Below are positions 5,140 to 63,885 of a stretch of 64,000 nucleotides of DNA, piece by piece. The stretch is from positions 8,606,137-8,670,136 of the forward strand of contig JASCQW010000119.1 in the NCBI GenBank assembly GCA_030264375.1, given 5' to 3'. Each line of letters starts with the position of its first letter. The first letter of the stretch is position 1. Under the pieces are notes generated by a model. It was not told the origin of the DNA and searched no databases. It saw only the letters and a list, made by a program, of their open reading frames with translations. The stretch comes from Carcharhinus longimanus (lineage: Eukaryota). The translations under genes and the position numbers were made by a program.

Positions 5140-5166
5140 AGGAGAAGCTGCGTACATGCGGAGACG
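5140..5166 (+). CDS. 27-nt micro-exon, (E)EKLRTCGD
   Basis: ttttttcag|AGGAGAAGCTGCGTACATGCGGAGACG|gtaagt. Confidence 0.85.
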
Positions 5167-5349
5167 GTAAGTAGCTCTTCACAGAACGTTACCATAGATC
5201 GTGTGAACACAATCACATAGTCATTGGTGAATGTGTGTTGCCGTACATGCATTTAGGCTGAATAATTTATGTGGTGGTTCCAACTTGGGAAGAAAAAATA
5301 ATGCGTTCATCTCAAAAATTACCTTTGCTAAAATTCATGTCGCTTTTCT

Positions 5350-8300
5350 TGACAGCCTTGGGCGCATAAAAAGGTGAATGGATAGCACGTTTTGTATATA
5401 GAAGCGGAGTCCCATATGGCACATTGCATGCAGGTTCCAGGGTGAAGGACATTTCTTCCCAGCTTGATGAATATTAGAGTGGCTGCGCAAAGATACAGCT
5501 TTTGTGGTCCATGTTGGGAAAACAACATATAAACAAACACGACTCTGAAGAAAAAAGTTTAGGGATTATTAGGAGCTGAGATCTCAATTACTGAGAACAC
5601 TTTCATGAGTTTGCGACTCACGTGCAATGTGGCAAAGATGAGAGAAAAAAAAATGGGTGAAATGTGATTAAATCGTGGTGCGGGGATAAGGAGCGATATG
5701 TAATGCTGGGCCCGTCTCCCCTGAACCGATCTGCGACCCGGGCTTCAGGAAAAAAATAATAAGGTGTGCACCAGCATTTTAAATGAGTAGATGGGGGAGA
5801 AAACAGTTAAAATACAAGATATGTAATTGTTTATGAGAAACAAAACAGCAGTTTCGCGTGTGGAGTGCAGGGATGTCAAGTGAGTGATGATTATGAACAT
5901 AGATAAACGGAAGAAGTACACAGGGGAGGCTACTAAAGTTGCTGGAACTAATAAGAAGACATTTCGCTGAGAAAAGTTTAGGAACCTCGCAAAGGAGCAA
6001 ACCAAAAGAAGGGCAAAAATGAACAGTGGGGTACTTAATGCAGAAATGTGTGCGATGTGTTGAACGTGTGCAGTTAAATACATATTTTAAAAAGCTTTTT
6101 TTTTCGTAGATTGTAGTTTTGTGAACACATGTGTTCATCTCAGACACATGTCTGCAAGGCCACCCGATCTGGTAGCGAGTTATCTAAGGATCCGCGTCAT
6201 GTTGAAAAGGCAGGGTCTTGATCAGATGGGTTGGTGTTGCCTTGTTCGGAACGATTGTACTTAAATCGTTAGTAAGAAACAAGTTGCAATTTGAAGATGT
6301 AGGATCTGTGAGGGCCAATTTGAAGAAAAGCAACGTTAAAAGTCTGTGATAGGGGTCATGCAGACGTCTTTGAAGTCGACAGGATGTGGGGTACAGGATC
6401 GCCCAGCAGATAAAAAACGTTATATAAGAAATGCAAGGTTAGAGTGTTCATGGTTGATTTAAATATGATGGTGGATTAGGGGGAAAAAAATGGTAGTGGA
6501 TGGGAAGATTCTACACTTTGTACTGTTGACGAGATGCATTTTCTGAGCCTTTTCTGATTGAGCTGACAAGGGAGCAAATGATCCGTAATTTGTTGATGCA
6601 TAATGAGATAGACATTATTTGAAAACATAAATGAAAGGTACCCTTAGGAGTTCGGGATGGAAACATGATATCATTTACCCTGAAATCGTGAGAGGGCGAA
6701 GCTAAAATTAGATATGACAGTATTTCAGGTGAGAACATGCATATAGAAAGGCATGCAGGAGGAACTCATCAGAGTTCTTTGAAAATGTGTCAAGTTCGAT
6801 TTATGGTGGAATATCTATGGCAGGAGATTCTGGAAGTATCTCGGAAGACACAGCAAAACGTCATACAAACCACAGGAAAACAAATACTCACGGGAGGACA
6901 AGACAGCCAAGGCCGATGCGGGAAGCCAGGAAGAGTGTAAAGCCAAAAAGGAAGGAAAGAGCAGCAATGATCAATGGGAAGCCAGGCGACCACAAAGCCT
7001 TAAAAAAAAACTGCAGAGGGCAACTAAAACGAATCAAGGGGGAGGGCAGAGTGGAGATAACATATCAAAATAAGAAAGACAACAATATCAATAAAACAGT
7101 TTGCAGCAACTTTTTTGATGTAGAAAGGGAAATTGAGAGACAAGAGCGGACATTTGGATGTTGGAAAATGACACTGGAAAAGTTGAAATTGGGAAGAGTA
7201 AAATTGTGGAGATATGGAAATAACGCCTTGTATCGGCCGTCACGACGGAATAAATCAGCAGCATAGCAGCAATTGAACAGTTACGAACAGGGTTGAATAT
7301 GCTGGACATTTCTGGTGAAGGAATAGGGAAGCTGAAATGTCTGAAAGTTTATAAATCACCTGGAGTAAATGGACTGCAATTCAGAGTTCCAAAGGAAACA
7401 ACTGAAGAGAGTGGAGGTGATCACTGTAGAACATTTTGTTTTAAATCACTGGACTGAGGCACGTCCAGGACGACTGGTAATTAATCAATGCAACACCATT
7501 ATTTCAGAAGGAAGATAGAAAGAGACGGGAAATTAGAAGTTTTTACTATAACTTTGGTTGCAAGCAAGATTTTAAAGTCCATTATTAACAAATGAAATTG
7601 TAGAATATGTGTAAATTGCCTGTAAAATGGCGAAGTCAGCATGTATTCGTCAAGGGGAGGTCACACCTGACATGCCTGTGAGAATAGTTTGAATAAATAA
7701 TGACCATGTTAGACAAACAAAAGCAATAGTTGTCATTTTCTTCGATTTTCAGAAGTCCATTCACAACTTATCACATAGGAGGCAGCTTGAAAGAATAAAA
7801 AAAAACACTCATCAGGTTAGAGGCAAGGCACTGCATGAATAATCAAAAAGATCTTGACTGGTCTAAGGCAGAGATTTGGCATAAAATGATCTTTCTCACT
7901 GTAGCAGCCAGTGTCCAGTTGAGTTCTGCAGTTTTTAGAGCTGGGATTACGTTTACTCACTTCATACATAAACTGTGTGCTTCATGGTACTGAAGGCCTT
8001 GTGGCAAGGTTTGCAGATGATACATAGTTTGTAAGTAGACAATCAGTATTGACTACACAGGCTGGATGCAATATACCTTCCACCGTTTCGGGCAGTGGAA
8101 ATAAAGTTTCATATGGAATACAACCAATGAAGATGTGAGCTATACACTTTGGTTGGAAGTATATAGTGGTTGTTTTTTTTTTAAATAAGGTATACAAAAC
8201 TTGAAAACATAAAATGATTTTGGAGTTCAACTTCCACATTCTCCTAAGGTTAGCTTGAATATTGAGTTGGTGCTAACGAACACAGATGCATTGAAATAAT

Positions 8301-8850
8301 TCATTTCCAGAGGATGAGAGCTCAAGAGCAGGACTGTACTACTGGAGCTTTCAAAGGCTTTTGTCAGGCCACTGTTGGAATGCTCAGAACAATTTCAGGC
8401 TACATTTCTGAGAAAAAGATATTCTGGCCTTTGAGATTGTACAGAACAAGTTAACAATAAAGATCCCAACAATGAAAAGGTTGATGTATGACGAGCGTAT
8501 GAAGGGTTCGGATCTTTATTCAGTGGACTTCGGAAGGATGAGGGCTGATATAATTGCAACTTGCAGAAATCTGCATGGCCAGGATAGAGTGGATGTAGGG
8601 AAGAAGTTTGTATTACTGGAAAAGACTAGACTAGTTGGACACAGATTCAGATTGCTCAAGCCGCTCTTTCGAACCAAAATGATGATAAATTTATTCAGCA
8701 ACTGTGTGCCCAATGTATGAAGTTCATTTCCACAGCAGGCTGTGAAGGCAGGGCCTTCGAGTTAATTTATGACACAGACGTATGAGTTCTTGGTTGGTAA
8801 GGGAACAAAAGTTATGGGAAAAAAAGGCGGGAGAATAGGATTCCATTGTA
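5350..8850 (+). mobile_element. Long, heavily decayed CR1 LINE (ORF1 SGNH-esterase remnant, endonuclease, RT)
   Basis: ccagggtgaaggacat...gtggtccatgttggga (VVHVG of CR1 ORF1) ~5440-5520; tttgcagatgatac (FADD) ~8010; C-terminal ORF2 remnant in ORF 8472-8720; many stops and frameshifts. Confidence 0.9.
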
Positions 8851-11479
8851 GTGTATATTTGCTGGACAGAAGTTGGTAATTTTATTCTGGCATGTTTTTT
8901 TTTTGCGCACAATGCTGCGGATGCAGCCAAATGGTGAACGACCAGGGCTTTCTGGGGGTAAGCGTTTTTTTTCCACTTGGAACCTCTGCAACGAGATTGT
9001 TTCCATTATCTCCACATTAACGTTATCAACAATTATCCGTAAACGTTACTCACTGATTCAGCATAGAGAGAGAAACATGATGAACATTGCCTCAGCGACG
9101 AAGATGAAATCCCCCCAAATTGGCATGTATGCTTGAATAAGATGACGTCTCGCAGAGTTTGATCCTCTAGAAGTATGGGGAGTGGAGCACATATTACAAA
9201 GGTCTTTGTGATGTTCCTGCGCACTTCAAAATAAATGGGTTTTAAAATCTGCATCGTTTTATTTGTTGGCTTTTGTCTTAATGAGACCTGAGCTACTACA
9301 TGAAAAGTGTTGGTGAGCAGAGATTTGCAATGCAAGAAATATAGTACAATGCTGGTGTACATAATTGCATAATGTATTGTTTCATTATTCTCTGTCTGTT
9401 GGCTTCCTGCTGCCCAATTTCTCCAGCAAGAATTCAGGGACAAATGTTATTTCAAATATGTTGGACAGGCACTAAAACATTAAGAGAAATGTGGCTGCAA
9501 TTCAGTAAATAATTGGAAATTGGTATCACGACGTTTGAACAGCATCTCAATACAGCTCGGAATCTCATTGCGTTCACTATGAGAGCAGGCGAGCAGTGGG
9601 CCATTTTTGTTAATTAAGTAATCAAACTGCCCAGTGAGTTCGGAAACACTTAAGTTCAAATTGTGAAGGAGAGCTATGCCATTGACGAGACAAGTACATG
9701 TCCAAACGATGACACATCTTTCGACATAATTGCGCGGAAGTTAGCTGAGTTGCTGAAAACTTTGCATTCATATATTTCTGGCTCCGCGACAGACAGTGCC
9801 TTATTTTTGCAATGCGAAATGGAACACCTCCAACACGCTCATTCGAAGGCCACTTAGAACATCTCTAAGTCTAGCAGCTGGAGATAGAAGCGCATTGAGG
9901 TCTCCAACGACTAAAATTTATCATCAGAGCAACAAATTATAATGAAATTGAACTATATTTTGATCAGCGATGGGCGATGGAACAAATGCTGGGAATTCAC
10001 ATTAGAACAGTGCTCTTCGAAGAACGACGTTCCCCACCAGCTACTTGGTTGAAATAAGCATAGTTCTTTTTTTAAGCTTTGAACGAGGGACCGAGAGGCA
10101 TCTTTATACAAAGGGACGATAAAACAAATATATTTCCATATGTGTTCGGGCTCTATTACAATTAGTGTGCCTCCCCTTCCTCGAATTCGCATTTACTAAT
10201 TCAATAAGTATCTGTGAAGCAGAAGATGAATTTAATTATCGGTAGCCCTTTTTCATCCGCAGCAAGAAGGCTTTCAGTGCCCCACTGCACTCTTGCTTCG
10301 TTGATTATCAAAATCGCTCGTGAAAACTGATGAGTGTATTATGCAAGCACAACTTATCACTTTACGATTTATGGTCAAAAAGTGGTTCAAAGTGATGGCT
10401 ATTTCAATTCTGATCATGCCAGTAACTTCCCGAGAAGTACATTTACCATGAATTCAACGAATTATGCGTTCATATCATGACAAACGTGTTCCTGTCCATA
10501 TGTTGCTATCCTTAAAAATGAAGAAATAAGATGTACTGGAAATTATTTCTGCCTGTCGTTTCTGGTCACTGGTTATGATCCTTTGGAGAAGGTGCCATAT
10601 TTCTTAAATGACGGTCGTGAGAGCCCATTTTTTTCTCTTTCCAGTCAGGTCATCATGTGCCTTGATGGCACACACTTACTTTGCGATAAGCTCCCAAAGG
10701 TTCTGCGACAATATTAGGACACGGTATTGAATGTTTTGATTTCCAGATTACTCTGAAAGGTACGTTTTACCGTCGTGCTGTGACAGTGCTGCAGGAGTCG
10801 GTCATTGAGGAAATACAGATGATGTATCCGTGAGTAATAGGTATTTTTGGAATACAGAATCGAATTCCATAATCATTTCGTGCATTTGCTCTCAGCTGCC
10901 CGAACATCTCAGTTGCTCAGATGTTCAGTTGCATTAAAAAAGTGTGTCTTATATATCTGGCCAGAGCTATAGAGGTTCATGTCATATTTCTCATTGCAGA
11001 ATACCAAGTATTAATTTGCTGTTTTAGCCATTCCATGTGAAATGTTGTTGCAATGTTGCGAGTGCTGATTAATTGTTGGCATGATGAAAATGTCTTCAAG
11101 GTTTCAAAAATGGCGAAATGTCAAGTGGCTTTTTACAAGAGTCTAATAGCAGGCTTTGTTTTTGCCTTCGAAATAATGCACATTTTAACGTAAATTGATA
11201 CCTTAGAATTCCCAGTTGAGCTAATATGTCATGCGGATGCCTATATGTTTGCTTTGATTGTGTAATCAAAGTTGAGATCACATTAGCATCAAAATAAATC
11301 ATTGGTGCTGACAGATGTTGACGAATAAATCTGATTGCTGCAGAGGTCACCCAAAATGTGAAATGTCGTTTCCGTAGGAACGGCAAAACGAGCAAAAGTA
11401 CATTGTTGTATCGCTGCAGAAATGTATTAACATTTGTACTCTGTCAGTTCGTGAACAAAGATATGACTTCATTGCCAAT

Positions 11480-11790
11480 GACATTAAATTTTCACGAATA
11501 TATCGTGGTATCGGACCTTGTGGAGTTTTCAAATTTTCCCCATGTCTGCTTGTGTATCAGAAGGAGCTCCGGTTTCCTTCAGCAGTTCGAAAATATGAAG
11601 AATTGGTGTAATGACAATGCATTTTTTTTCCTTGCTCTCCAAATAAATATACATTAGATGGAGGAGACTTGATCAATGGGCAATGTTTCGAGGAAAACGG
11701 CGGGGCTGGGTGAATCCCTCTTTCAAAGAGTTGATGCTAAATCGATGAACCCAACGTTTCTGAGCAGTAGGACTCCATCGTTATGGCGTT
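11480..11790 (+). mobile_element. Decayed shark tRNA-derived SINE
   Basis: gtggagttt...ttccccatgtctgcttg...gctccggtttcct core shared with the better-preserved copies. Confidence 0.6.
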
Positions 11791-12051
11791 TATGTGTTGT
11801 GTGGTTGGGGAGAAAACAGTAAGTGCAGTCTGTTTCGTCGCAGCCATATCTTCATGATAGTGTTAGGCATTTCAATCAGTGCTGAACATTTTGCCTCATT
11901 TCCGTACTCAGATGTCTACTGAATAAATTCGAAACCAAAATGCCATGATGCGGACATCCATGAAAAAAATGGTTTGTGGTGAACCAGAAAATCTGTTTTG
12001 TTTGTTTTTTAATTTCATTTATTTACAAAAACAATACGAACTTTCAATTAG

Positions 12052-12078
12052 ATCAACGCACGAAAGACACCAAAGCAG
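12052..12078 (+). CDS. 27-nt micro-exon, DQRTKDTKA
   Basis: ctttcaattag|ATCAACGCACGAAAGACACCAAAGCAG|gtaaaa. Confidence 0.7.
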
Positions 12079-12362
12079 GTAAAACAATTTGAATGCCATA
12101 TGTGTAACAAAAATGAATCTAACTGGATGATTAAATAAAAATTACATTTTATGCGCAGCATCCAAATGTTGTAGTTTACCATCATGGACATTAATTCAGA
12201 ATTTACAGACCACACAACCCGATTTTAATTTCCCTACTGTATAATTGTCAAACGTCGTCTGAAATGCATCTTCGGTATTTACTTCATCAGATCAATGTTT
12301 TAGCAATCGGTTATCAGTGAGGAATCATCCCCATGTCACCTCACCATTCTTCTCTGTGTATG

Positions 12363-12398: not shown

Positions 12399-12429
<31 letters not shown>

Positions 12430-19314: not shown

Positions 19315-19350
19315 AGTTAAAGGGACTCAAAGAAGGAGGAGCAAAAAAAG
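19315..19350 (+). CDS. 36-nt micro-exon, ELKGLKEGGAKK
   Basis: attatttatag|AGTTAAAGGGACTCAAAGAAGGAGGAGCAAAAAAAG|gttaag; weaker donor, but fits the 27-27-36 period. Confidence 0.65.
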
Positions 19351-19979: not shown

Positions 19980-22170
19980 CTGTCGTGAAAGAGCAAATCA
20001 TGACTTTTTTTTGAGGAATAGGGCAGGCTGTGTGACTGAATTGATGTTGGGTGACAACGTTGAGACCAATGACCATAGTCCCAATAATTTTAAAGTAGTT
20101 AGCGGAAGGGTCAAAACTGGTACACTGGTGCAAATCTAAATTAGGACAAGATGAAATGTAACTAAATTATGCAGAAAATTGGAAAAGTTGCCTGACGTAG
20201 CCTGATTGACGGCAAAAGGAGGAGTTCTTAAACAGTGAAAAATCAAGAGTTCAAGGTCCATATGTTCATTTTCGCTTGAAGTGCAAGGCTCGCAGGAGTA
20301 GGGAACCATGGATGACAACATAATGAGGCTTGGGACAGGAACAAAACATAAGGTGTTATGGCTCGGGGAGCAAAAGCTGGAATCATGGGATGTTCCCTGG
20401 TGAAGGAGAGCAGACATAGGAATGCTCTCAATAAGGATTTTAGAAGGACAGCAGGGGGCACGATTTAACATTGGCTGAGACATTTATGGTGAATCAAAAG
20501 GCTAATTTAAGTAGAATAGGGGAAAAGTAAAATAACTCGAGTTGCAATCGGATCCCTCAAAGACCAGAGCTGACACATATGTTTAGCAGCAGCAGACAGG
20601 AGAGGCTTTCAATAAATGTGTCTCCACTGTGTTCATCATGAAAAAATACATGACGACATTGACACCTGGAAAAGTTAGTGATGATATATTCGGGGCAGCT
20701 CACAGTAAAATAGAGAAAATGATGGGTGTATCAACATGTATGAAGTTGGATGAATCTCCTGGTCCCGCCCAGGTACATCCAGGAACACTGCATGAGGCTA
20801 GAAAATAAATTGACTGGGACCTGACGAAGATATTTGAATCATCATTCGCCATGGATGAGAATCCAAAAAAAGTGAGGTAGCACATGTTGCGCCTTTATTT
20901 CAGAAGGCCTGCAAAGACAAACCTGGGAATTATTGACTGGTAAGCCGAACAATGTGGTGGGTAAGTAACTAGAGAGGATTCTGAGGGGTAAGGGGTACAG
21001 GCATTTGCAAAGACAGGGTTCGACTCGGACTTTGTAACAGTTAACAAATATGTTGATGAGGGAAGGGCGGTAGACAAAGTCTATACAGACTTTAGATATA
21101 GTCCTACATGGTGGCTACTCCAGAAGATCGGATCACATGAAATCTTTGGAGAACTAATAAATAGGATGTACAATTGATTGATAGTCGGAAGCTGAAGGTT
21201 ATGGTGGAAGGATGCTTGTCGGATTGGTGGCCTGTGACTCGGCGTGTGCCACAGGGGTCAGGGCTGGGTCCATTGCAGTTTGTTATCTGTGTCAACGATT
21301 TGGATGTAAATGTACAGGGCATAAACAACATGTTTGCAGATGACATAAATCGAGGTGGTACGTAAGAAAGTATGGTGTATTATCAAAGATCTTACCAATA
21401 TGTCGTTCAGCTGGGGAAGTGAACCGAAACACAGCTAATGGTTAGCAATAAAGTTAAGTGTGGGAAGTTGCATTTTGTAAATTAAAATTAGGTAGAACTT
21501 TCACAGTGAATGCCAGGCCCTGAGGGAGTATTGTGGATCAGCTGTGTGTTGGAACTCAGGTGTACAGTTCTCTAAAGGTGGAGTTTCAGGTAGATAGGAC
21601 AATGAAGTTTGCTGGTCTTCAGTAAAAGTATTGAGCATACAAGTTGGGCAATTAGGTTACAGATGTATTGGATTGTGGTGAGGCCGCACCTGGAGTATTT
21701 CTTTTTTTCAGTTTTGGTTGACTTGCAATAGGAAACATACTATAAACATGGAGAGACTGCGACAGTGATTTCCCAATACGTTACAAGGATTGAAGCAATT
21801 ATGTTACAGGGAGAAATTGGACAGGGTAGGCATTTTGCAAGATCATGAAAAGCATGAAAGGGGTGAATGCATTCAATATTTTCCTAGGATGGGATAATCA
21901 TCAATTAGGGGCCAGAGGTTTAATTTTAGAAGGTAAACTGAAGTGCAAATATTTTACGCAGATAGCGGCACGTGTGTGCAATGAGCTGCCACAGGAAATC
22001 GGGGCAGGGACATTGACAACATTTAAAAGGGATTTAGACATATACATGGAAAAGTGAGGTTTAGAAGGATATGGGCCAAATGAAGGCAACTGAGTTTAGC
22101 GTAGATGTACTTTTTGGTTGGCATGTGCCAACTTGAACCGAGTAAGCTGTCTGTGTTCTATAGGTCCTGT
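19980..22170 (+). mobile_element. Decayed CR1 LINE ORF2 and 3' UTR
   Basis: ORF 21174-21365 W.PVTRRVPQGSGLGPLQFVICVNDLD...MFADD; ORF 21845-22057 NELPQE...TFKRDLDIYM. Confidence 0.93.
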
Positions 22171-22520: not shown

Positions 22521-22547
22521 AGAATGAACTAACTCGTTGTGAAAAAC
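22521..22547 (+). CDS. 27-nt micro-exon, ENELTRCEK
   Basis: tttattgtag|AGAATGAACTAACTCGTTGTGAAAAAC|gtaagt; resembles 5140 exon (E-x-x-L-x-x-C). Confidence 0.85.
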
Positions 22548-22671
22548 GTAAGTATATGCCTCTACTTTACGTTTGACTTCTCATATTGCCTTGAAACATC
22601 AACATCAACATTTTTAGATTTGTTCTCCGTTTCGAGTGGATCGGTTACATTTCATTAATTATTGCCCATAG

Positions 22672-22698
22672 GCGATGACTTCGATAATAAATACAAAG
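22672..22698 (+). CDS. 27-nt micro-exon, RDDFDNKYK
   Basis: attgcccatag|GCGATGACTTCGATAATAAATACAAAG|gtgaga. Confidence 0.85.
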
Positions 22699-23291: not shown

Positions 23292-23318
23292 AACTCGAGA
23301 ATCTTGTTGAGAAATTGA
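23292..23318 (+). CDS. 27-nt micro-exon, ELENLVEKL
   Basis: tttccttgcag|AACTCGAGAATCTTGTTGAGAAATTGA|gtaagt. Confidence 0.85.
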   Translation, partial: NSRILLRN

Positions 23319-27504: not shown

Positions 27505-27582
27505 TTCTTCTTCTTCTTCTTCTTCTTCTTCTTCTTCTTCTTCTTCTTCTTCTTCTTCTTCTTCTTCTTCTTCTTCTTCTTC
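27505..27582. repeat. Perfect (TTC)n microsatellite, ~26 units
   Basis: Direct reading; source of the poly-Lys ORF 27468-27680. Confidence 0.98.
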
Positions 27583-27662: not shown

Positions 27663-27689
27663 CTTCATTATTACTACCAAAAGAGAAAG
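27663..27689 (+). CDS. 27-nt micro-exon, (A/T)SLLLPKEK
   Basis: atttctttcaag|CTTCATTATTACTACCAAAAGAGAAAG|gtaact; paralog of 47837 exon ASKLLAKEK. Confidence 0.8.
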
Positions 27690-28750: not shown

Positions 28751-28786
28751 AAAACCGCAAATTAAAGAAAGCCTTAGAAAACAAAT
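28751..28786 (+). CDS. 36-nt micro-exon, ENRKLKKALENK
   Basis: catattccag|AAAACCGCAAATTAAAGAAAGCCTTAGAAAACAAAT|gtaaga; close paralog of 61306 exon. Confidence 0.9.
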
Positions 28787-36880: not shown

Positions 36881-36907
36881 GTCCTGGAAAATTCTTTGAC
36901 AGTTATG
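36881..36907 (+). CDS. 27-nt micro-exon, CPGKFFDSY
   Basis: ttcaccgattag|GTCCTGGAAAATTCTTTGACAGTTATG|gtgagt; junction T+GT forms Cys. Confidence 0.8.
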
Positions 36908-37684: not shown

Positions 37685-37711
37685 ACAAAGAGCTTAAGTC
37701 ACGTGAAAAAG
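37685..37711 (+). CDS. 27-nt micro-exon, DKELKSREK
   Basis: ttcccccctcacag|ACAAAGAGCTTAAGTCACGTGAAAAAG|gtacaa. Confidence 0.8.
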
Positions 37712-39341: not shown

Positions 39342-39377
39342 AGCTAAACGACACGAAAAATACTCTCAAGGAAACAG
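39342..39377 (+). CDS. 36-nt micro-exon, ELNDTKNTLKET
   Basis: tttctgtattcag|AGCTAAACGACACGAAAAATACTCTCAAGGAAACAG|gtgaac. Confidence 0.8.
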
Positions 39378-41490
39378 GTGAACAATAAGGTCATTCTGGG
39401 CCATGTATTTCGAAGCGAGAACATAACATATAACATTTATGTTTCGGCAAATTACCATAAAAGTATGTTGTTGGCCTACAGAGCGTATAACAGCGGCCAG
39501 CATTACACTTCCTCAGAATGAAATTCAAAATAAAAGTGCTGCTGAACTGGTGCCACAGTCATTTTTCTTTTTGTTTTTTTGGAAAGTAAATACGAACAGA
39601 AATTACCCGGATAACACGGAGTAATGATTCAACTGACTCTGAATGACGGGATGACGAAACGGCGCCAGTTATGGGCCGAAGGGCCTGTTTGTGCTGTAGT
39701 GTTCTATATTCTACAAAACACGAATTTTAGAAATGATTCACGACTGTGCTTTCATGCATAAGTAACATTTGTTACTTAGTTTGATTGGAGACTTCGAGGC
39801 TTGTTGAACATTTTAATTGCGTAAGATGTGGTTGTTAGATTCGACAAAATAAACAAAAACATTCAAAAGAAAATATGTTTAGTTCAGAGAATTAGTTCAG
39901 ATGTGTACGCTTATGATGCAGAATCAAAATCAGAAACAACAATAAAAATAAAGAAGCGAGGTTAAATGTCTTAAAGCAGCGCCCAATGGTTACTGCAATG
40001 TACAGACCTATATTTTAGGGAATACGAGTTTATTTGAATTACTTACAGTAACCTGCAATTATATTTAAAAAAAATACACCTTCCTTGGAGACATGTGTCA
40101 TGGTGTTAGTTATTCTGGAGGGCTGGAAACGATTCTGTTATTCGAATTCTTCTTTCCGAGATTTGGCTATTAAATTACCCGCACATTGCTCTGGCAATTC
40201 TGTTGGTTGCGCGTCTCTATATAAATGCTTCCAATGTCATTTCTCTCCAGTAAATCCGGATTCGATGACAGTTTTAAACATATTAACAAGAGTGCAGAAG
40301 ATCTTTACATTACGTTCTGGCTCATGTGTATATTCTCCTGAAACTAATATCATACTTGACCTCTGTAAATTGTAAGCATTGCGCATTGCCTCTGCTGATT
40401 TATTACAACAAATGTGTCGTTCATTAAAGCTGATAAAATGTCAGAGGAAAAGAAAATAGAATAACATCATCTAAATTTGGATTTGCACAAAAGGTCAAAT
40501 GGTTCCTGGGATGCTAGTCATCGCTTTCTGCCAGTGAGGTGTCACGCTTTATATGGTGGTTGCAAAATCTCTGATTATGCGTGCGCTATTCAGAAAATGC
40601 TGTGGAAATAACTGACAATGGAGGCGAAATATTAACTGTGCAGTAGACAATCCCTTTCGTTTCGCTGCTTACTTGTTCTGCAATTTGAAGATTACCTGTC
40701 TATTGTTAGCACACCATATGCCAAAGATGCAACTATTGTCAAAGCTGCTAAATATGCATTAATTATATTTGCAGATGATAAGTTGAATCGGTGTTTGAAA
40801 GGTGATTTTGTTTCGAATAATAAGTTCAGTTTTCTGTTCAGCAATCGTTCACCTGTTTTGATTGAAGTCTCACCTTGACATATTAACATTGATGATCAAA
40901 ATGAATTTACATAATTTATGTGGCAAGTCATATCATTTTGAATATCATTGGCTGATTAGCCAAATTCGGCAACGATTTGAACATGAATCAAATCTATCTG
41001 TTTTGACAGTAATTGATGATCAGAACAAATTGCAACGTGTGATGAAAATATATATTTTTCCAACAAAATGCCTCTGACCAATAGTGTAAGGAGGAAAAAT
41101 CAGACTCTACTCTTCCAAACGTGCCGTTGGTAGAAAACTGCTGATGCTCAGGCGAATTGATGCAGTGCCAATACAATTTGTAACAGAAAACAATCGATTT
41201 AAATACATTATAGTGTTAGGAAATGGAATGTGTGGCCACCGGTGTCATTGAAGTCAGATCTAAGCAAGCCTTCTGGAAAGTGCCCTTGATAGTCATAAGA
41301 ATATGAATAATGCATGTTGCGCATATAAGAAATGTGATGTGTGTCATTGCCTGCATTAGCATTGCAATTGGAAAATCACGCAGTTGGAAAAGTTGTCTAC
41401 TTCTGTCTTTTTATAAACATGTCTATGATTTTACGGTTGCCATTTCATTCTCATTCTAACTGATAGATTGTGTATATCGCATCTTTGCAG

Positions 41491-41517
41491 CACTGAGCAA
41501 AAGATGCAAAAGCGATG
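41491..41517 (+). CDS. 27-nt micro-exon, ALSKRCKSD
   Basis: atctttgcag|CACTGAGCAAAAGATGCAAAAGCGATG|gtacgt. Confidence 0.85.
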
Positions 41518-42158: not shown

Positions 42159-42185
42159 ATGAAAGGTTGCTTGATGCACAAGATG
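42159..42185 (+). CDS. 27-nt micro-exon, DERLLDAQD
   Basis: atcttcattcgag|ATGAAAGGTTGCTTGATGCACAAGATG|gtaagg; GAG acceptor is suboptimal. Confidence 0.75.
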
Positions 42186-43415: not shown

Positions 43416-43451
43416 AAATTTCAAAGCTGAAAAACAATTTGAAAGATAAAG
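43416..43451 (+). CDS. 36-nt micro-exon with GC donor, EISKLKNNLKDK
   Basis: atcctgtccag|AAATTTCAAAGCTGAAAAACAATTTGAAAGATAAAG|gcaagg; paralog of the 28751 and 61306 exons. Confidence 0.75.
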
Positions 43452-43745
43452 GCAAGGACAACAATTATTAACAAAAATAATTATTCTTTACATTATGTCA
43501 TTTTAATTTTTATGTCATCAACAAAATTCTAGTTTAAATGAACTTAGGTTTCCAGTGGAATGTTAACATCAGCAATCTCATCATCATGACAGAGGGAAAA
43601 AAAAACAGGTTATTGCATTTTCTGTCGATGTTTGTAACGCCCATTCAGCAGACTCTGGAAGCTCAGATCCAGCAAATCAAATAAAACCAAAACAATTGTA
43701 GGCGAACTGCATTCACGGATAATATCTGTCAGAAATGTCTTACAT

Positions 43746-44520: not shown

Positions 44521-44547
44521 ATGAGGAAAGTCAGCGTGCATGTGAAA
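44521..44547 (+). CDS. 27-nt micro-exon, DEESQRACE
   Basis: gaattctcag|ATGAGGAAAGTCAGCGTGCATGTGAAA|gtgagt. Confidence 0.8.
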
Positions 44548-44922: not shown

Positions 44923-44949
44923 AAATCGAAGATTTGCTTGAAAACACAG
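44923..44949 (+). CDS. 27-nt micro-exon, KIEDLLENT
   Basis: tttttattattttgaag|AAATCGAAGATTTGCTTGAAAACACAG|gtaagg. Confidence 0.85.
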
Positions 44950-47836: not shown

Positions 47837-47863
47837 CAAGCAAGTTGCTAGCAAAAGAAAAAG
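47837..47863 (+). CDS. 27-nt micro-exon, ASKLLAKEK
   Basis: ttatcattcgcag|CAAGCAAGTTGCTAGCAAAAGAAAAAG|gtaaac. Confidence 0.85.
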
Positions 47864-54399: not shown

Positions 54400-57310
54400 T
54401 AAATGAAACGTTCTTGTAGCGCCTTTGATTAACAAAGGGACAGCAAAGTTGCTAGAAGTTTATAAAAAAAATCCCTAGATTGTCAGCGGGACATTGCAGA
54501 GAAAATATGTGTGCAATTCGCAGAATGGTATAAAAATAATAAGATGACATTTTTATTAGGTGATTTCAACTATCCCAACATTAACTGGATTAACGAACAT
54601 ATTAAGGTCTTAGATGGAGGAGGTTTCGTAAAATGTATGCCGGAAAATGTATTAGATCAATAGCTAGATGATGCAACAAACATCGGAGCTGTGTTGGATC
54701 AAATTCTTGGGAATGAAGATGGGCAGGTGGTTACTTTGTTGGTGGTGGTGGTGGAGGGGGACATTTTGATTTTAGTGACCTCAACATGTTTCAATTCGAA
54801 TTTGTTATCGACAAATAAATTGTGAAGTTGCAGAAAAAAAAAATGTTTTGGGGAGAGCAGATTTTAAGGAAATTAGACCAGATCTGGCCAAGTTAAACAA
54901 GAACGAATTACTTGTGGTGATATCAAAGGACAGTGTCCCAAGTACAGTNNNNNNNNNNNNNNNNNGGACTTTTACAAAGATGAAATGTGGAAGATAAAAG
55001 CCCAACATATTCCCTTAGGATAATAGGACGTTCGAACAAATACAGAGATCCATGGAAGACCAGTGACATTCAGGACACAATTGTGTGAAAAACAGAGGCT
55101 GTTCAGAAGTATTAGGGATTGAAGTCTGCGGAGACATTAGTGAATGGAAGTGCAGGATATAACTTAGTAAATCAATTAGTAGAGCAAACGTGGAACTGAG
55201 AAATTCCTTACTGGTTAAAGTAAAGGAGATGTTAATGTATTTTGCAAGTATTTCAATGGGAAGAGGATAACCAAGGAACGAGTAGGGCACTTTGGGGATC
55301 CAGGGGGAAATCAGTGGGTGCAGCCAGAGTGCATTCGACGCGTGTTAAATGCATGTTTCACATCTGTCTTCACTCATGGGAATGGGGAGGGAATGTGAGG
55401 CTTTAGAGTAAACTGTCATCGGGCGTGACAAAGTACTGGAGGTATTGGTGGGCTGAAAAGTGGACACATCTCCAGATCAGGATTAATTGTGTCCCAGGCT
55501 GATGTGTGTGGAAAGTAAAGAAATTGCAAGGGCTCTGAACCAGTTTTTTTTTTAATTCTCTCTGATGAGTAGGTTGATGCGAGAGGAAAGGAAGAACATT
55601 TAATGTAGTTCCACTGTTTAAAAAAATTGAAGGAAAAAAAAAACACAGGGAACTACAGGCCAGCGAACCTCACGTCAGTGTTTGGGAAACCACTGGAGAA
55701 GGCTCTGAGGGGAGTATCTACCTCCATTCGGAATGAAAGTGTCGTCCAGGGATTGTCAGCATGGTTTTGTCAAAAATTGCTAACTTTTTTTTGAACTTGT
55801 AATCGACTGTGTGGATGAAGGCAGTGTGGCTGATGTAGTTTACATGGATTTCGTCAAATCCTTTGAAAAAGCCTCGAATGGGACAATTTTTTTAAGGAAA
55901 GCAAATTGCATGTCTTTGACACAAGAAAGGCTTACATTAACTCTGCGTTTATTTAGTGTGAAACTCACCTAGTCCACACAATCAGGCGATTGTTCTGGAC
56001 AGTGCATCAGCCAGCATATGTTTTTTTTTCAGAACGTGGGAGTAAACTGGAGCAAAAGGAGGAAACCCACGCAGAGACGGGGAAAATATGCAAACTCCAC
56101 ACAGATAGCGACTAAAGCCGGGAATTGATCCTGAGTCCCTGGAGCTGTGATGCAACAGTGTCAGTCACTGCGCCACTGTGCCGTCCACGAAAGCAAATGC
56201 AAAGGGGATACAGGCTGATATGATAAATTGGATTCATAACTGGCTTTGTGGTAAGAAGACAAAGGTTGGCGGCAGATTGCTGCTTTATTAAACAGTGACC
56301 AGAGGCGTGCCTCGGGGATCAATAGTTGGCTCCTTTGGTGCTTCATTTATATAAACGGCATAAACCGTTGTCTGAGGCGCTAGGTCAGTAAGTGTGCCGA
56401 TGGCTCAAAGCTTGGCCGGTTGGTTAGCAATAAGTTTGAATGTCTTGTTGTACACGGAAACATAGACGAAATGATCCAATGGTCAAATAAGTGGCAGATG
56501 GAAACTGACCGAATAAGATGTGAATCGGTGCACTTTGGACAGAGTATTTTGACAAGGCAACATACTATGATAGATCTGACACTAGGAAGTCCTGGAACAA
56601 ATAGACGTTGGCATGTTGTTCATGGAACTATGAAGGCGGGAAGGCAGATTAACATGGTAGTGTAAAATACATGTGACATTCACAACTTCATCAACTGGAG
56701 TACAGGCCACAAAGACAGAGACGTCATGGTAGAGCTGCACAGAGCTCTGATGAGGCGCCAACTAGAGCATTTTGTGCAGTTCTGTTCGCCACATAACAGG
56801 AAGGACATGAAATCAGTGGAGAAGGTGCAGAAGAGATTCATAGGGTTGTCTGGGACAGAAGTTTTCCGTCATGCTGATAGTTTGGAGAGGCTTGATTTTT
56901 TTGTTGGCAGGAGTAGAGAATATAGAGGGGCGACCTGATTGAAGTGTTTAAGATTTTGAGAGGCAAAAGCAGCGTGAATAGAATGCAATTGTTCCCTTTA
57001 GTTGGAGCCTCCGTTTCGAGAGTTAAATGAGTGGGGTCGGAGATTTAAAGGGAATTTCAATAAAATCTATCGTCTCAGAGTGAGGCGATCGCCTGTAATG
57101 GATTGTCAGGGAGGCGGATGGAGGCGTGATGTGTACATTATTTCAAAAGTATCTGGATGATTAAGTGCGCGCCATAATATTCATGGGTTTGGGCCTAGTG
57201 TTGGCAAGTGGGATCACGTGGGCAGGTCAGGGAATTCGGGCACCTTCGCAGACTCGATCGTTAAAGGTTTTTTTTTGCATTGTATTGTATTGTACTTCTG
57301 CGATTCTGTG
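54400..57310 (+). mobile_element. Decayed CR1 LINE ORF2 and 3' UTR
   Basis: ggtgatttcaactatccc (GDFNYP) ~54560; aactacaggccagcgaacctcacgtcagtg (NYRP..LTSV) ~55650; gatgtagtttacatggatttc (DVVYMDF) ~55832; ORF 56726-56938. Confidence 0.93.
55907..56188 (-). mobile_element. SINE inserted into CR1, with target-site duplication
   Basis: gaaagcaaat at 55897-55906 and 56189-56198 flank the SINE body (gaggaaacccacgcagagacggggaaaa). Confidence 0.88.
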
Positions 57311-57467
57311 ATTCGAGTGGGATTTCTTTGTTTTATCCTGAATCACCCAGGAAAAGGAGACATGGGTTCAATCGCTGCATGTGAATGCTATCTGACTTTT
57401 GATCCATACATTTTTTTTCTGTCTAATTAATTTCTTATGTAACCGTCCCTTTGCCATTTTATTTTCA

Positions 57468-58470
57468 GTAAGAAGTCTCACAACACCAGTGTAAATTCCA
57501 ACGGGTTAATTTGTTAGCACGAGCTTCGGGAGAGCTGTCCCTTCATCAGTTGAGTGTCGAGTACAGATCACAAAGAGGGCATATTTGACACATACTCAAT
57601 TACAAGATGATGGTTGGGATGCTAATCTTCATAGCGAAACAAGTGTTTACATTTGCAGACAAAGCGAGTGGAGAGAGGGTTAAGCACAGCTTAAAGATGT
57701 TTATATTATCTCAAGCCAGGAGAGTGAGTAAGATTTTTCAATCCGAGGCAACTCGTGGGGGTTATAAGTCGTGTGACATGAACCCAAGATACCGGTTGAG
57801 GCCGTCTTCCTGCGTGCAGAAACTGGCTATCAGTTTCTGCATGGCGATTTTGCTTTGTCATGTACCTTGACGACCGCCTTGCCGCACGCTTACTGGAAGC
57901 TCAGATGACGTATGCCCTAGGTTGTGAAAGTGTTCTGCGGCAGAAAGGGAGTACTCCTGCCTGAAGAACACTTCTGCCTGGTGAATACTTTAACGTCGAG
58001 GACAATCAGCCTCTGATGTTCGGGCAAGTGTTCTCCAAAACACACAACAACATAGAATCGCCAAACAGAAACTGGTAGACAAGTTTCGCATAGAGGACGA
58101 CGGCCTCAAATGTATCTTCGGTACACGCTACACTATCTGTAACCCCGAGGACTTTGCCGCGGTTTGCAAAATCTTACGAACAGTCCTGACTTGAGACAAT
58201 TCATATCTCTTTATCGTGTGTTTAACCTCTCCACGAGCATTGTCTGCACCTGTAAAGAGTTGAGTGTTGTCAAGACTCGCATTCCCGCCATTATCTTGGA
58301 ACTGAGCCTCTGTCGAAAGATTCCTTATTTGAGAACAAACATCTCTATTCACCTGACGAAGGGGCAGCGTTACGAAAGCTCATGCTACAAAAAAAAATGT
58401 TGGACTTTAACTAGTGGTGTGAGAATTCTTACTGTGCCTACCCCAGTCCAACGCCGGTATCGGCACACCA
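57468..58470 (-). mobile_element. Penelope-like element with inverted terminal repeats
   Basis: 57468-57556 (gtaagaagtctcacaacaccag...cccttcatcag) is the approximate reverse complement of 58347-58433 (ctgacgaagggg...ggtgtgagaattcttac); decayed GIY-YIG ~57830-57900. Confidence 0.85.
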
Positions 58471-59027
58471 TTTTATTTTGTTCATATGAAAGTGTTTTTT
58501 CGTGTTGATTTTCATTTTATCTGTTTTTCTCTGCATGTGTATTAACATATAATTCGAGAAATATATTACTGTGCATATTTACACATTTCTTTGCTCGTCT
58601 ATTGGTCCATCGGTTTTACCACTGTTAATCTGTATTTCAGCTCCAAACATATGCCGGCAGGCGGCATTGTCCGTTCTGTTTTGTCCGTCCATATTCTAAG
58701 TTTCAAAAAAAAAGGATCTTGGAATGAGAGAGGAATTGTGCAGTTGCAGGAGGAAAAAAAAGTGCTTAGAGAAAAGAAGTTGAAAGCTATAACAAATGGT
58801 TATTTTCCAAATGTGTAGAACCATTATGGCAGATTTCCCTCTGGTTGTGGACATTTTACGTTATCGTACTATGATGCTCAGAGCAACACCTCGAGTTTAA
58901 CAAAACTTACAATAATGTAAAATGCCAATACTATTTATCAATTTGCAACTGAATTGCAAGAGCGAAATTTGATTAGCGGTGGTTTAGGAACAGTGGACGT
59001 CGCAGAGATATTTGTAAGTTATTAAAG

Positions 59028-59054
59028 ACATTGGGAAAGCTCTAAACAACCTGA
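59028..59054 (+). CDS. 27-nt micro-exon candidate, DIGKALNNL
   Basis: gttattaaag|ACATTGGGAAAGCTCTAAACAACCTGA|gtaaat; weak polypyrimidine tract. Confidence 0.55.
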
Positions 59055-61305
59055 GTAAATACCTGGAATCTGGCGCTTATATGATTTAGTACTCTAAACA
59101 TTTCAGAAGATGTTAATATTTCTGGAAGAAAGTACTTGTAATAATGTAGCTTGCCATTGAGGAATTGAACGACAGTTCAAGAAGGTTATGTTAAACTTGG
59201 AAAAGCAAGTGGTTCTGCCTTCCCTCGAATGTTGTGCACGGTGCTGGGAGAAATACTTTTGAAATGATGTGTACCCATGTGGGAGAGTGTCTTGGAGGTT
59301 CAGCCGCATGAATGCAAGGATAAGGAACTAACGTTTTAAAAGAACAATTGTAGCAGTTGTAATTGTTTCCATTAGAGAAGAACAAAAAAAAAAGGATTAG
59401 AGATTGATGGAATAGTCAATCGCCGGAATGTCACAGCTCTGCATACCACGAACTGAATCGTGTGGATTAAAAATAATTGACAGAAAATGCACAGATGATT
59501 TGGCCAACCATATGTATTAACACCAAGGAACTTTGGAATCTGGAATGGACACATTTGTCGTTGTTGGAGGTTGTTCATCCCAACAATTGAAGCTCCAACT
59601 GCATTGCAATTTCAAAATAAATCATGTGCTAGGCTCTGTTAAAAAGGAAGAGGCAGAAAATCAGAAATCCAAGAGTGGCTCGATGAGCGGAATACCACCT
59701 TTTGTTCCATGATAATTTTACTACTTTCATCAATCTTTGATTCAAACTTTACTACCAATATTGACAACAGCCACTGTGAGTTCAACCTTTTATTTCACTG
59801 TACACAAGAAGTAGCCTCTCAACTGTCCTTCAGCAATCTTCCGAGAGGAAATGTATTCCCGTGATAATCACCCATGTCCACAGAAATAAGTGCTCATATC
59901 CGTGGAATCCCCAAACAATATAATATTCTTTATCTTTGTTTTTTTTCTGCCTGCTGTTGCAAGCAACACATTTCAGAGTATGGTTTAATATGCCTCTCGT
60001 TTCATTTCATATATGATTAATTTACAACTGAACATAAGAGAGAACTGCATCACACCAAATATCTCCCTTTCCTTTGTGCATGGCTACCACCAAAGGCGTC
60101 CGTATCTGAATAGTACTAAATACCGAATTAAGCTTGTCCACAAATTAGTGATCCAAGTGATTGTACCTCCATGACGGAAGTTGTGAGATGCTGGTGCTTC
60201 AACCTTCCCAGATAACATCAACTCTGGTTGCTGTTGTTCACGTCACACTGTTTAATTGCACACTTTTCGAGATACCGATCTGCCACGCGAGGAATAGCTT
60301 TGCTAAACCTTTTGTTTGACAATCCGAGATGTCAATAATGTACGCATTTACATTATTTCTGTGCTGAAATCTTTTTGTCATGCTAATTTGCTGCCGTTAA
60401 CATCAATGTTAAATTTGCACATATTCCAGTGCAACTCATCTAATTGCGAGAAATGTCCAGTGCTGATACACGTTATTAATTAAACTTCAAAATATTTCTT
60501 AATAATCAATTGGTGGCTTATTCCAATGATGTGCTACGTCGTGCATTATGCATTTCAAGTTCCAGTACTTCATTATTATAGCTCGTTTTTCCGAAAATAA
60601 TAAAAAAAATCAAGTAATCTACTCAGCCATGTGATAATATTGCCTGACTTCCCGTCGTCCGTATTTAATTTTCCTGCCTTGCACTCTGATCCGGATCGAG
60701 CCAGTCTGTACCCTGTTCACTCCGTTGAAATCATTGTTCCGTGATTACTTCACGATGAGGTGTGATTGACTTTACTCTGGAACTTTTTGAAATAACACCT
60801 CTGTGCAAACCTTCCCTGCCATAAAAAAGACAAATTAAAGAAAAAATCTGAATAATCGCTCGGACGTAAGTAGCATGATGCCAGCAATGGAAATACTTGT
60901 TTCATCGGACTCTTTTTTTTTCAGAACGATGCCACTGTTGCAGCTATTGATTCATAAGCATATACAAACGTTTCCCCATCTATTGTTCAATTGTCAGTGC
61001 GTTGATGTCCATCCTCGCCTTCCATGTCGTAAAAGTAAATGAGATAACGATATAATAAGTTGACTGTTCGTATTTTCCTTCGATTGGTACTTCTTTCGTA
61101 GCTCTGATTTTTTTTTTTCAACGAACTGCCAAATTCACCATGTATTTGCGAACAACACGGCTGTCTCACAACTTGGACATTGTACAATGGCGATGTATGT
61201 TGGAACTTGTGAGAGTATCAATGATGAATTACTGCAGATGCGTTATGCAGAACAGGAGAACGTACATGGCATTTTTTTTCGTAATAATTGATATCTGTTT
61301 TACAG

Positions 61306-61341
61306 AAATTCGTAAATTAAAGGAAGCGTTGGAGAACAAAT
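61306..61341 (+). CDS. 36-nt micro-exon, (K/E)IRKLKEALENK
   Basis: atctgttttacag|AAATTCGTAAATTAAAGGAAGCGTTGGAGAACAAAT|gtaagg. Confidence 0.9.
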
Positions 61342-63269
61342 GTAAGGACAATCATAAGGCTGGTCCAACTTATGGCATGCACAATTACTGTTCAAAATTG
61401 CAAAATTGAACGAATGCCACATCTAGCAATCAGAAGAATGCAGGAACATTACGTAAAATAACTCTAGCTAAGGCAGACTGAGCAAATTGTATCCGGTTCA
61501 TTTAAAAAAATTCTAAATCTGTGACGAACAGTAACTATCCGTATTTGCATGCTGTCCAAGTATCACTAAAATTCATTAGCTCCTTATCTGAAATCTATTT
61601 GCAAGACAGTGAACATAATAGTCAAATGTAATAAACTCTGGTTGGATGCAACGTATTTCATCAAGGAAATAGTGGAGGAATGAGAAAATAACTTCAGAAG
61701 TTAGTAGTGCAAATCCGCCTCATTGAAGAAGCCCTACTATGCCATTTTTTTTTCAATAGAACTGTAGAAGCTGAGTTGGGAAGGAGCACAGACTTATTTG
61801 GATAACAAGGAATGCTGAACATTAGCACAAAATGATCGCTGCATCATTGCATAGGAATAGGCTGCAATACATACGCGAGAGATATTAACCTACTGTAGTC
61901 TTCACTTCAGCTTAACAAACAAACTTCTATTCATATGTATTTATTGACTAAGAATTCAAGTATTGTTATGTTAAATATGTCTGTTCTAAGATGGAAGTGT
62001 AGCAAAGACTGGTGATGGAAACACTCAAGAATCCCTGATGATTTTGTGCAAACTTTCCCCCGATTTATTTCAAAATGAACTTTTGCTTGTGTTGTGCATA
62101 CAAAAATTCCTTTACCCAAAATAGAAACATCATCGCCTTTGTGACGAGTTTGGCAGACGCATTTCAAGTGTAGTCCCAATAAATATTTGCCCCACTCCTT
62201 TGCTCTTCCAAACATCTAAAATGTCAGTTGCATTTGTTTTTATTCATTCCCTTTCATCAAATTGCAACACAGTCTCTCTTAATTATAACATTTGCACGTT
62301 TCATGGTTGATAAGATGTATATTGTCTTTATAAACTTAGGATCGCAATTATGGACTTCATAAATCCAAATATTACCTTATGGTGCCAACATTTTTGTTCA
62401 TACATGAAAGTACTCATTTTTTTGTTCGTTTATTTTTATTGTCCAGGTATCTCTTGTTATCAAATAACTGCAATTATATTTACAGTCATGAATATACAGT
62501 AAAAAAAAACTTTTCGCCTGTCATGAATATACGGTGTAAAAAAATGTGACCCTGTCACTAATACTTAAGACACATCATTTGCTGATAGCTGCCAACTTGA
62601 AAGTTAAACATTTTCCCTCAGACATTCTTCGTGGTCTAAAACATCAGTTTTCCCGTGTTGCTGGAGCCAACAAATTCCATGAACATGCACGTAAGATATT
62701 GTTCACTCTGTGTTATCTCATTGATCGTGACTTGGAAATCAGAATTTGGTGCCGATTTTCCTTCCCTTTAAACTGGATCTGGAGTACATTTTTTGAAAGA
62801 AAATTACATGGTGCACACAGTTGTGTATCCATAAAAGCATGTTGAAATTATTGGATCACATTGGGAATTTGAAAGACAATTATATAATTTATTCGATTAA
62901 ATATTTTCGAATGTTGTGTACCCGGCTCAAAGACAAGACGTTTTTTTTTCTGCTGAGTTTTCCTCGCACGTTTTAGCGAAAGTGTTTAGATTGTTTTCCA
63001 CGAGTCCAGGTGAACATATTATGCACGGAAGCTTGCTGGACACGCGAGATTTTGGTGGGTTGAAATTTTGCTGCTACTGAATACATGTATGACTTATATT
63101 AAGAGTTATTGTGTTACATTTGCATAACCTTAATGGAACGAATCTGTACTACTTCGTAGCAGCCATAAATCCGGTTTCGATCGGATATTCTCGCCCTCCA
63201 GTTCTTGCGGGGGGTTTCTGATGTGGTTTATTTACTATTATCGTTTTTTTTAATATTCATTCGTGGAAA

Positions 63270-63450
63270 ATGGGTTTCGCTGGTTTGCCATCATTTATTC
63301 CCCGACCCTATTACGTTGCTGTGGGTCTGGAGTCACATGCACTCCAGGCTAGGTAAGGACGGCAGATTTCCTTGCCCAGATGACATTAGTGAAACGGTTG
63401 TTCTCTTTCGAGAGTCGGCAATGGTTGCGTGGTCATTAGTAGATCATGTG
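63270..63450 (-). mobile_element. LINE-type 3' UTR repeat fragment
   Basis: ggtctggagtcacatg...ggtaaggacggcagatttcctt is the reverse complement of the family at 28990-29100. Confidence 0.7.
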
Positions 63451-63876
63451 TTCCAGATAAGTGTGTGTGTGAGAGAGAGATCGAACTCCAATCTTATAAA
63501 GTATTCAGAGTTATCGCCCATAAAATTATTTTTTCACGTTCAACTTAACCAATTTGGATGACTCTTCCTTCACCGTGAGGTCATCAACCATCGTATTTCT
63601 GTCAAGTTGTGGGCATCCTGCAGTAGCAGCTCTGTGCACCATGCAATCTGAAAGGGCAAATTGCAGCATTTTCAATATACGTTTTGACACACATCACTGT
63701 CAAATAATTGTTCAGTGAATGTTTCATGAAAAAAAAAAGGCTACAAAGATCCAATAACGATCGGACAGAACACATCAAATTGTATGTTTGAAGTATACCT
63801 TTCAAAAACAAAACAATTTATTTATTTATTGATTGATTATTTCCAGTAATTGGACGCTTATTTCTCGCTCAATTAG

Positions 63877-63885
63877 GTAAATCTG
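63877..63885 (+). CDS. 9-nt micro-exon candidate, CKS (positional paralog of the 36881 exon)
   Basis: tttctcgctcaattag|GTAAATCTG|gtaagt; flanks resemble those of the 36881 exon; an alternative acceptor (ttccag, exon start 63847) is also possible. Confidence 0.4.

Follow-up and report, generated by a model that had tools for sequence, protein, structure and literature searches.

The micro-exon array of gene F

The stretch analysed here, 64,000 nucleotides (nt) of DNA from Carcharhinus longimanus (the window, G000:C119:8606137-8670136, within a 2.68-Gb genome), carries on its forward strand an array of exons of only 27 or 36 nt, all in phase 1. The window likely holds the 5' fifth of a gene of about 420 kb, here called gene F, which is predicted to comprise at least 105 such exons and to end in an exon encoding a B30.2 (PRY-SPRY) domain. 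Coordinates of the gene follow window numbering, continued beyond both window edges, with negative values lying upstream. The window also holds 17 open reading frames of at least 120 amino acids (aa), none of which is related to the micro-exon array.

In a first scan with generic splice matrices, AG..GT/GC pairs of 15-60 nt with a combined score of at least 14 bits were collected; 9 of the 39 high-scoring pairs on the + strand of the window were 27 or 36 nt long, compared with 0 of 33 on the - strand. An exon model combining splice sites with a residue profile was trained on 92 exons, all outside the window, which had been picked for their splice scores and their content of charged residues. 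With a cut-off of 12 bits, this model gave 16 phase-1 matches of 27 or 36 nt on the + strand of the window and 0 on the - strand, compared with a mean of 0.7 and a maximum of 2 in 20 dinucleotide shuffles of the window; this is the length check against the other strand and shuffled sequence that a preliminary description of this DNA had proposed, and it came out in favour of the array. For the final set, four lower-scoring exons with counterparts in a paralogue were added and the candidate at 20904 was dropped, leaving 14 exons of 27 nt and 5 of 36 nt, which amount to 558 nt or 0.87% of the window. Joined in phase 1, these 19 exons are free of stops and give 185 full codons. The preliminary description had counted 19 phase-1 segments joining into 186 aa, with coding DNA under 1% of the window, and both statements stand; it gave few coordinates, and its set may differ from the final one by one or two exons. 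Its argument that the array is non-random, drawn from synonymous differences between exons 28751 and 61306, also holds, as the two exons are 81% identical and differ by 4 synonymous and 2 non-synonymous codon changes. Two of its details had to be given up: the segment ending at 63885, listed as 27 or 36 nt, is 39 nt long and doubtful, and a strict 27-27-36 pattern is replaced in the window by one 36-nt exon accompanied by 1-4 exons of 27 nt, and further 3' mostly by 27-36 alternation (51 of 78 transitions).

Over 624 kb around the window, charged symmetric exons are in excess on the + strand at 27 nt (65 vs 7 on the - strand) and at 36 nt (41 vs 4), with no clear excess at other lengths, and the trained model gives 138 matches on the + strand and 5 on the - strand, a count that includes the training exons. 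The array of gene F runs from about -8570 to 407276 and comprises 105 exons that reach 12 bits, with a total of 3,249 coding nt, a median intron of 2,071 nt and 41,113 N within the span. Symmetric exons of 15, 21 and 39 nt also occur in arrays of the family, so that the counts of 27- and 36-nt exons are lower bounds. The in-order junctions of 108 exons contain no stop, the exons themselves having been selected as stop-free. The last exon (412063-412583, G000:C119:9018199-9018719), which is in phase 1 and contains the stop codon, lies 348 kb past the window. It encodes a B30.2/PRY-SPRY domain, with a Pfam SPRY match at E 4e-11, BTN3A1 as the best hit of a profile search against solved structures (E 9e-30), and the PRY-SPRY domains of TRIM58 and TRIM7 as top matches of its predicted fold (predicted local distance difference test score, pLDDT, 63). 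Because the gene ends in a B30.2 exon, the analogy with the heptad exons of butyrophilins and chicken BG drawn in the preliminary description pointed in the right direction. It is very probable that the micro-exon gene structure is real, and there is a high probability that a single transcript would link the array to the B30.2 exon.

Paralogue U and the family in cartilaginous fish

A second B30.2 exon, at -77460, is the 3' end of an upstream gene, U, whose array holds at least 66 exons across more than 310 kb. The exons of U and F, aligned with their order preserved, score 745, compared with 491 ± 22 (maximum 556) in 100 order shuffles, and the alignment spans the window block through to the last exons before the B30.2 domain. 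Fifteen of the 19 window exons have an in-order counterpart in U, about 400 kb upstream, three of these pairs being matched more by position than by sequence. Over the 15 pairs, identity amounts to 300/441 nt and 72/132 residues, with non-synonymous divergence (dN) of 0.33 and synonymous divergence (dS) of 0.83; their flanking introns score 0.39, and random pairs 0.32 ± 0.03. The best reading of U and F is an old duplication of the whole gene, which links the window with the far-off B30.2 exon. In DNA runs from two related organisms, with even cover over the introns, the B30.2 exon of F diverges by 3.0% (2 pieces) vs 6.7% for introns (11 pieces). The preliminary description had called the gene fast-evolving, which fits the identity of only 36-59% among the B30.2 domains of paralogues, but fits neither the B30.2 divergence at about half that of introns nor the dN/dS of the window exons, about 0.4, which is only a rough value since the pairing favours similar exons and lowers dN. 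Judged from these sequence comparisons, the window exons and the B30.2 domain are under purifying selection. That the array consists of chance AG..GT pairs or belongs to a dead gene is barely credible: a few weak candidates (such as 20904, 12052 and 63847) may be false, but the controls on strand, shuffling, colinearity, dN/dS and order all speak against it, as do the stop-free junctions of 108 exons and a B30.2 exon that is intact and conserved.

The exons of the window and their counterparts in U are collected in Table 1. Beside them, the intron at 22548-22671 is 124 nt long, near the shortest in the gene, and the paralogous intron of U has 128 nt. A (TTC)26 microsatellite at 27505-27582 is located 80 nt ahead of the exon 27663 acceptor, where it could serve as an extra pyrimidine tract.

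Table 1. Micro-exons and candidate exons of gene F in the window (negative coordinates, paralogue U)
Position	Strand	Feature	Score (bits)	Gene U
5140..5166	+	27-nt phase-1 micro-exon	22.7	
19315..19350	+	36-nt micro-exon, less sure	17.6	possible weak counterpart -408402
20904-20939	+	36-nt alternative or additional candidate to 19315	14.0	
22521..22547	+	27-nt micro-exon, Cys-bearing	14.9	-407116, 6/8 residues identical
22672..22698	+	27-nt micro-exon	16.5	-406961 by position, same short preceding intron
23292..23318	+	27-nt micro-exon	20.3	-401921
27663..27689	+	27-nt micro-exon	11.6	-393525
28751..28786	+	36-nt micro-exon ending in T	29.6	-377807, likewise ending in T
36881..36907	+	27-nt micro-exon, Cys-Pro-Gly start, predicted helix break	strong splice sites, low residue score	-377223
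37685..37711	+	27-nt micro-exon	22.9	no counterpart found
39342..39377	+	36-nt micro-exon	29.3	-373604
40775..40801	+	27-nt micro-exon, Cys conserved in paralogue	22.1	-369181
41010..41036	+	27-nt micro-exon, weaker	12.1	no clear counterpart
41491..41517	+	27-nt micro-exon, Cys conserved in paralogue	11.9	-368411
42159..42185	+	27-nt micro-exon	17.7	-366922, 6/8 residues identical
43416..43451	+	36-nt micro-exon, GC donor (43452-43453)	27.7	-362674, GT donor
44521..44547	+	27-nt micro-exon	9.6	-361802 by position
44923..44949	+	27-nt micro-exon	24.3	-361449
47837..47863	+	27-nt micro-exon	26.2	-359251, 7/8 residues identical
61306..61341	+	36-nt micro-exon ending in T, last confident window exon	26.7	-351265
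63847..63885	+	doubtful 39-nt candidate; 30- and 9-nt alternatives exist	acceptor 4.0, donor 10.3	no counterpart

The genome contains at least seven genes of this kind, with six B30.2 exons of the F type on the contig of the window (C119) and one on contig C81. Five other B30.2 exons of the clade were examined and the same type of micro-exon array precedes all of them, with sense/antisense counts of 10/0, 10/1, 14/0, 13/2 and 4/0. In a 62-row tree, from which ten isoform duplicates and lower-ranked matches were excluded, these proteins fall in a 17-row clade supported at 100/100 and apart from the RING- and Ig-bearing rows. The clade includes models from two catsharks, basking shark, epaulette shark, skate, electric ray and chimaera, together with one further assembly protein, and among the best 150 of 1,697 library matches there is no named clade member outside cartilaginous fish; the gene had been taken for a chondrichthyan one from the outset, rightly on this evidence. 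In catshark RefSeq models the matching exon peptides follow one another in the same order (gene C, 4 of 4; C81 gene, 4 of 5), and the chimaera model P0055 (1,697 aa) segments into units of 9 or 12 residues with a score of 264, compared with 126 ± 19 in shuffles. Word-index searches (0 matches; 11 matches, 2 of them in the clade; 3 matches) gave no full-length orthologue of F from an elasmobranch, a result that speaks only weakly for its absence. The B30.2 domains of the clade share an invariant Trp-Asn, an Arg and a C-terminal Trp, and these invariant residues and the purifying selection would be more in keeping with a fixed partner than with an arms race.

Several observations were made on other members. 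Gene C (G000:C119:9085615-9086109, - strand) lies 67 kb downstream of F in tail-to-tail orientation. Its catshark orthologue is XP_038668997.1, in which residues 63-118 match remnants of dispersed repeats and probably reflect an annotation error. The C81 member (G000:C81:94266582-94267043, - strand) lies inside a cluster at 85-102 Mb of B30.2 exons of TRIM and butyrophilin type and Ig exons, probably the region linked to the major histocompatibility complex. In genes A, C and E, a 24-nt class of exon with a conserved Val-Asp/Asn start is placed a few exons ahead of the B30.2 exon. Queries of the ESM Atlas with P0151 and P0055 led to clusters of chordate SPRY proteins of 1,277-1,802 aa, bearing automatic names such as 'putative leucine-rich repeat-containing protein DDB_G0290503' and 'nucleoprotein TPR isoform X51'; these are leads only, and the clusters may consist of complete family members or of similar-looking proteins from other lineages.

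The predicted rod and its place in the cell

The 36-nt exons have hydrophobic residues at positions 1, 4, 8 and 11 and the 27-nt exons at position 3, so that a pair of 36 and 27 nt makes 21 residues, or three heptads. In a profile stacked from 40 such units, the 21-residue unit has hydrophobic residues at heptad positions 1, 4, 8, 11 and 15, and the sixth core position is usually Lys; a strictly alternating 27-36 stretch gives a spectral peak at a period of 3.5. The coiled-coil repeat protein proposed earlier is thereby supported. Local heptad power lies above every residue shuffle (0/300 and 0/100 reach it), and exon-order shuffles reach the genomic value in only 5/300 cases for the window and 1/100 for the 3' part, which means that exon order matters for the heptad register. 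The window block is richer in 27-nt exons, some with Cys, Pro or Gly, and these would split the coil into segments.

The register bears on exon skipping, since a single skip of 27 or 36 nt shifts the heptad by two residues. Of the skip junctions in the window, 167/171 are open and 4/171 give a stop; exon 28751 ends in T, and some junctions made by skipping would for this reason create a stop. In RefSeq, the isoforms of related genes are distinguished from one another by single blocks of 6, 7, 9 or 18 residues, so that some skipping is present in the annotations of the family. Free skipping, as a means to the variation of rod length and composition suggested in the preliminary description, is doubtful given the register shift, the exon order and the four stops. 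It is unlikely that the array serves immune diversification, in which combinatorial skipping of symmetric exons would give many rod variants as in the micro-exon genes (MEGs) of schistosomes. The symmetry of all exons, the mostly open junctions and the single-block isoforms would suit such a role, as would, as a lead only, the Atlas cluster of 1,802-aa proteins named 'isoform X51'; but the genomic order preserves the register, exons and B30.2 domain are under apparent purifying selection, the exon order is conserved between old paralogues, and the variants would alter the length of the rod, not the binding head.

The 5' side was searched in the 68 kb between the stop of U and the first confident exon of F, a region that holds several gaps. 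No Ig, RING or B-box was found there by pattern, nor by Pfam in 125 upstream open frames (Ig 0/125), nor in six clade proteins scanned with Pfam; tblastn with a set of proteins (17 Ig-bearing, and RING-bearing ones included) gave no Ig, RING or B-box match, for Ig in the whole 624 kb. There are 0 transmembrane-like exons on the + strand of the 68 kb and no convincing signal-peptide exon in the 68 kb before the array. Butyrophilin-like Ig exons are mostly on C81, others on other contigs and none on C119 (88 of 168 candidates scored). Inspection of the flanks, as proposed in the preliminary description, has thus yielded the B30.2 exon downstream but no Ig or transmembrane exon and only weak signal-peptide candidates upstream, and the suggestion of a surface protein is not sustained. 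A butyrophilin- or BG-like membrane receptor with a huge cytoplasmic tail, whose Ig and transmembrane exons would lie in assembly gaps, is unlikely. The closest solved B30.2 relatives are indeed BTN3A1 structures, heptad micro-exons with split codons are reported as a BG trait (PMC5938342), one clade member sits in the C81 cluster of TRIM and butyrophilin genes, and upstream gaps exist; against this stand the searches just described, the 0/6 clade proteins with Ig, and the separation of the clade from the Ig-bearing rows of the tree.

No island stands out in a CpG scan for the 5' end. The first confident exon (-8570) contains an in-frame Met-Gly-x-x-x-Ser, which we take to be an N-myristoylation pattern, with an out-of-frame ATG before it; if this Met were the start, the rod could be lipid-anchored. 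A location in the cytoplasm is likely, as no Ig, RING, B-box or transmembrane exon was found, N-glycosylation sequons show no enrichment (F has 6 where 5.2 are expected, and the chimaera model P0055 has 1 where 4.0 are expected), and three RefSeq isoform sets have starts without a signal peptide. The B30.2 domains of butyrophilins and TRIM proteins are established as intracellular (PMC12841164).

The most likely reading, to which we give an even chance, is a spacer or tether in the cytoplasm: a rod some 160 nm long, formed as a parallel coiled coil, with two B30.2 heads on a conserved partner, which would work much as the soluble BG 'zipper protein' or enterophilin does. All array exons would be spliced into one messenger RNA, giving a rod of about 1,100 residues that ends in the B30.2 domain, and two chains would form a parallel coiled coil whose length follows from the coiled-coil rise of 0.15 nm per residue. 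The paired heads would then bind a conserved host partner, which the rod could keep at a set distance, or the rod could lie along a filament, as is reported of the 'zipper protein' tail of chicken BG. Differences in its length would arise chiefly as paralogues duplicate or lose exons; skipping would contribute only at places that tolerate a register shift, or when a 27+36 pair is left out as a whole. Extended to the whole group, the reading becomes that of an old cartilaginous-fish family of molecular rulers, with genes of up to 400 kb that consist almost entirely of 27- and 36-nt exons in three-heptad units, and with rods of 100-200 nm that bear B30.2 heads and owe their length to the duplication of exons and the coordinated skipping of 27+36 pairs; we hold it tentatively, at slightly short of even.

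Several points weigh against the cytoplasmic rod. Gene F is known here from DNA sequence alone; with 41,113 N in its span and several gaps in the 68 kb upstream, missing exons or a hidden gene boundary are possible; and no first exon or start codon was found by ATG and exon scans. The bias of the pairing towards a low dN, noted above, counts here as well. In addition, the models P0151, P0055 and P0082 begin with a hydrophobic stretch, and core-placed Cys also fits disulfide-linked extracellular dimers: Cys makes up 27 of 1,082 residues in F, and 28/35 of the Cys in F and U exons are at core heptad positions. These last two points would suit a secreted or extracellular protein, a coiled-coil fibre held by disulfide links whose B30.2 heads would make it a molecule of multivalent recognition or of the matrix; this reading is rather unlikely. 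Secreted B30.2 proteins exist, such as the snake vespryns, several of the core Cys are kept between paralogues, the Leu-x-x-Cys pattern recurs in the chimaera model, and there is a weak ATG-hydrophobic-donor candidate at -17639. ATG scans through polypyrimidine tracts, on the other hand, yield similar hydrophobic starts, and since such read-through mimics them, at least two of the RefSeq starts are probably annotation artefacts; the hydrophobic starts are taken as probable intron read-through, not as signal peptides. The start of P0151 had no match when searched against the genome, and the sequon counts and the three isoform sets without a signal peptide also speak against secretion.

Significance and comparison with known systems

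No published description of the F family was found, most subscription journals and bioRxiv supplements lying outside the search. A report on shark skin lists one 'Zinc-binding protein A33-like' entry, a possible member of the clade, and a supplement search returned no accession of the clade (PMC10707392). The database models found are mostly short fragments named TRIM39-like, A33-like or nuclear-pore anchor-like, so that immune and proteomic studies of sharks would miss most of the protein. The family adds, beside TRIMs and butyrophilins, a B30.2 architecture of rod plus head with no RING and no Ig. All its finds come from cartilaginous fish, chimaera as well as sharks and rays. Gene F, in which over 100 exons of 27 or 36 nt are separated by introns with a median of 2 kb, is a natural test of serial micro-exon inclusion by vertebrate spliceosomes, and also of whether skipping respects coiled-coil register. 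If the ruler reading is true, gene F would be an extreme case of vertebrate micro-exon splicing, and its B30.2 would form a class of its own beside those of TRIMs and butyrophilins. The member within the C81 cluster bears on the origin of the heptad-exon tails of butyrophilins and BG.

Like chicken BG, gene F builds a long coiled coil from tiny split-codon exons whose number varies between paralogues. In PMC5938342 and PMC4046983, BG tails are described as made of 13-37 exons of 21 nt (sometimes 18 or 24 nt) behind signal, IgV and transmembrane exons, with no B30.2 domain; a soluble BG tail, the 'zipper protein', is reported there to act on actin-myosin in the brush border. Gene F differs in its 27+36-nt units, its more than 100 exons and its terminal B30.2 domain, with no Ig or transmembrane exon found, and the 624 kb show no excess of 21-nt exons (10 on the + strand vs 11 on the - strand). 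The butyrophilins BTN3A1 and BTN2A1 and ERMAP share with F a heptad region followed by a single terminal B30.2 exon. Butyrophilins are described as having IgV/IgC domains, a transmembrane segment and few heptads before B30.2 (PMC5938342, PMC4046983), whereas at the F locus, allowing for the gaps upstream, no IgV/IgC or transmembrane exon was found; the clade is separate in the tree, and the exons have 27 and 36 rather than 21 nt.

TRIM proteins also combine a coiled coil with PRY-SPRY; TRIM58 and TRIM7 are the top fold matches, and RefSeq gives clade models the names TRIM39, TRIM58, TRIM69 and A33/XNF7. The F locus and six clade proteins differ from them in having no RING or B-box found, and the predicted rod is about ten times as long as a TRIM coiled coil. 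On the tests run, gene F does not belong to the TRIM, butyrophilin or BG families. Guinea pig enterophilins are cytoplasmic proteins with many heptads, up to about 45, plus B30.2. Gene F, with its long heptad rod and B30.2 and no Ig or RING found, matches them in architecture only, and they are the closest functional analogue; they are mammalian and absent from the tree, and since the clade is found only in cartilaginous fish, orthology is unlikely. A role of enterophilin with SNX1/EGFR is described in PMC13749957. Schistosome MEGs resemble gene F in their symmetric micro-exon arrays. They encode small secreted proteins with no known conserved domain, whereas gene F has a heptad register that constrains exon order and a B30.2 domain at its end.

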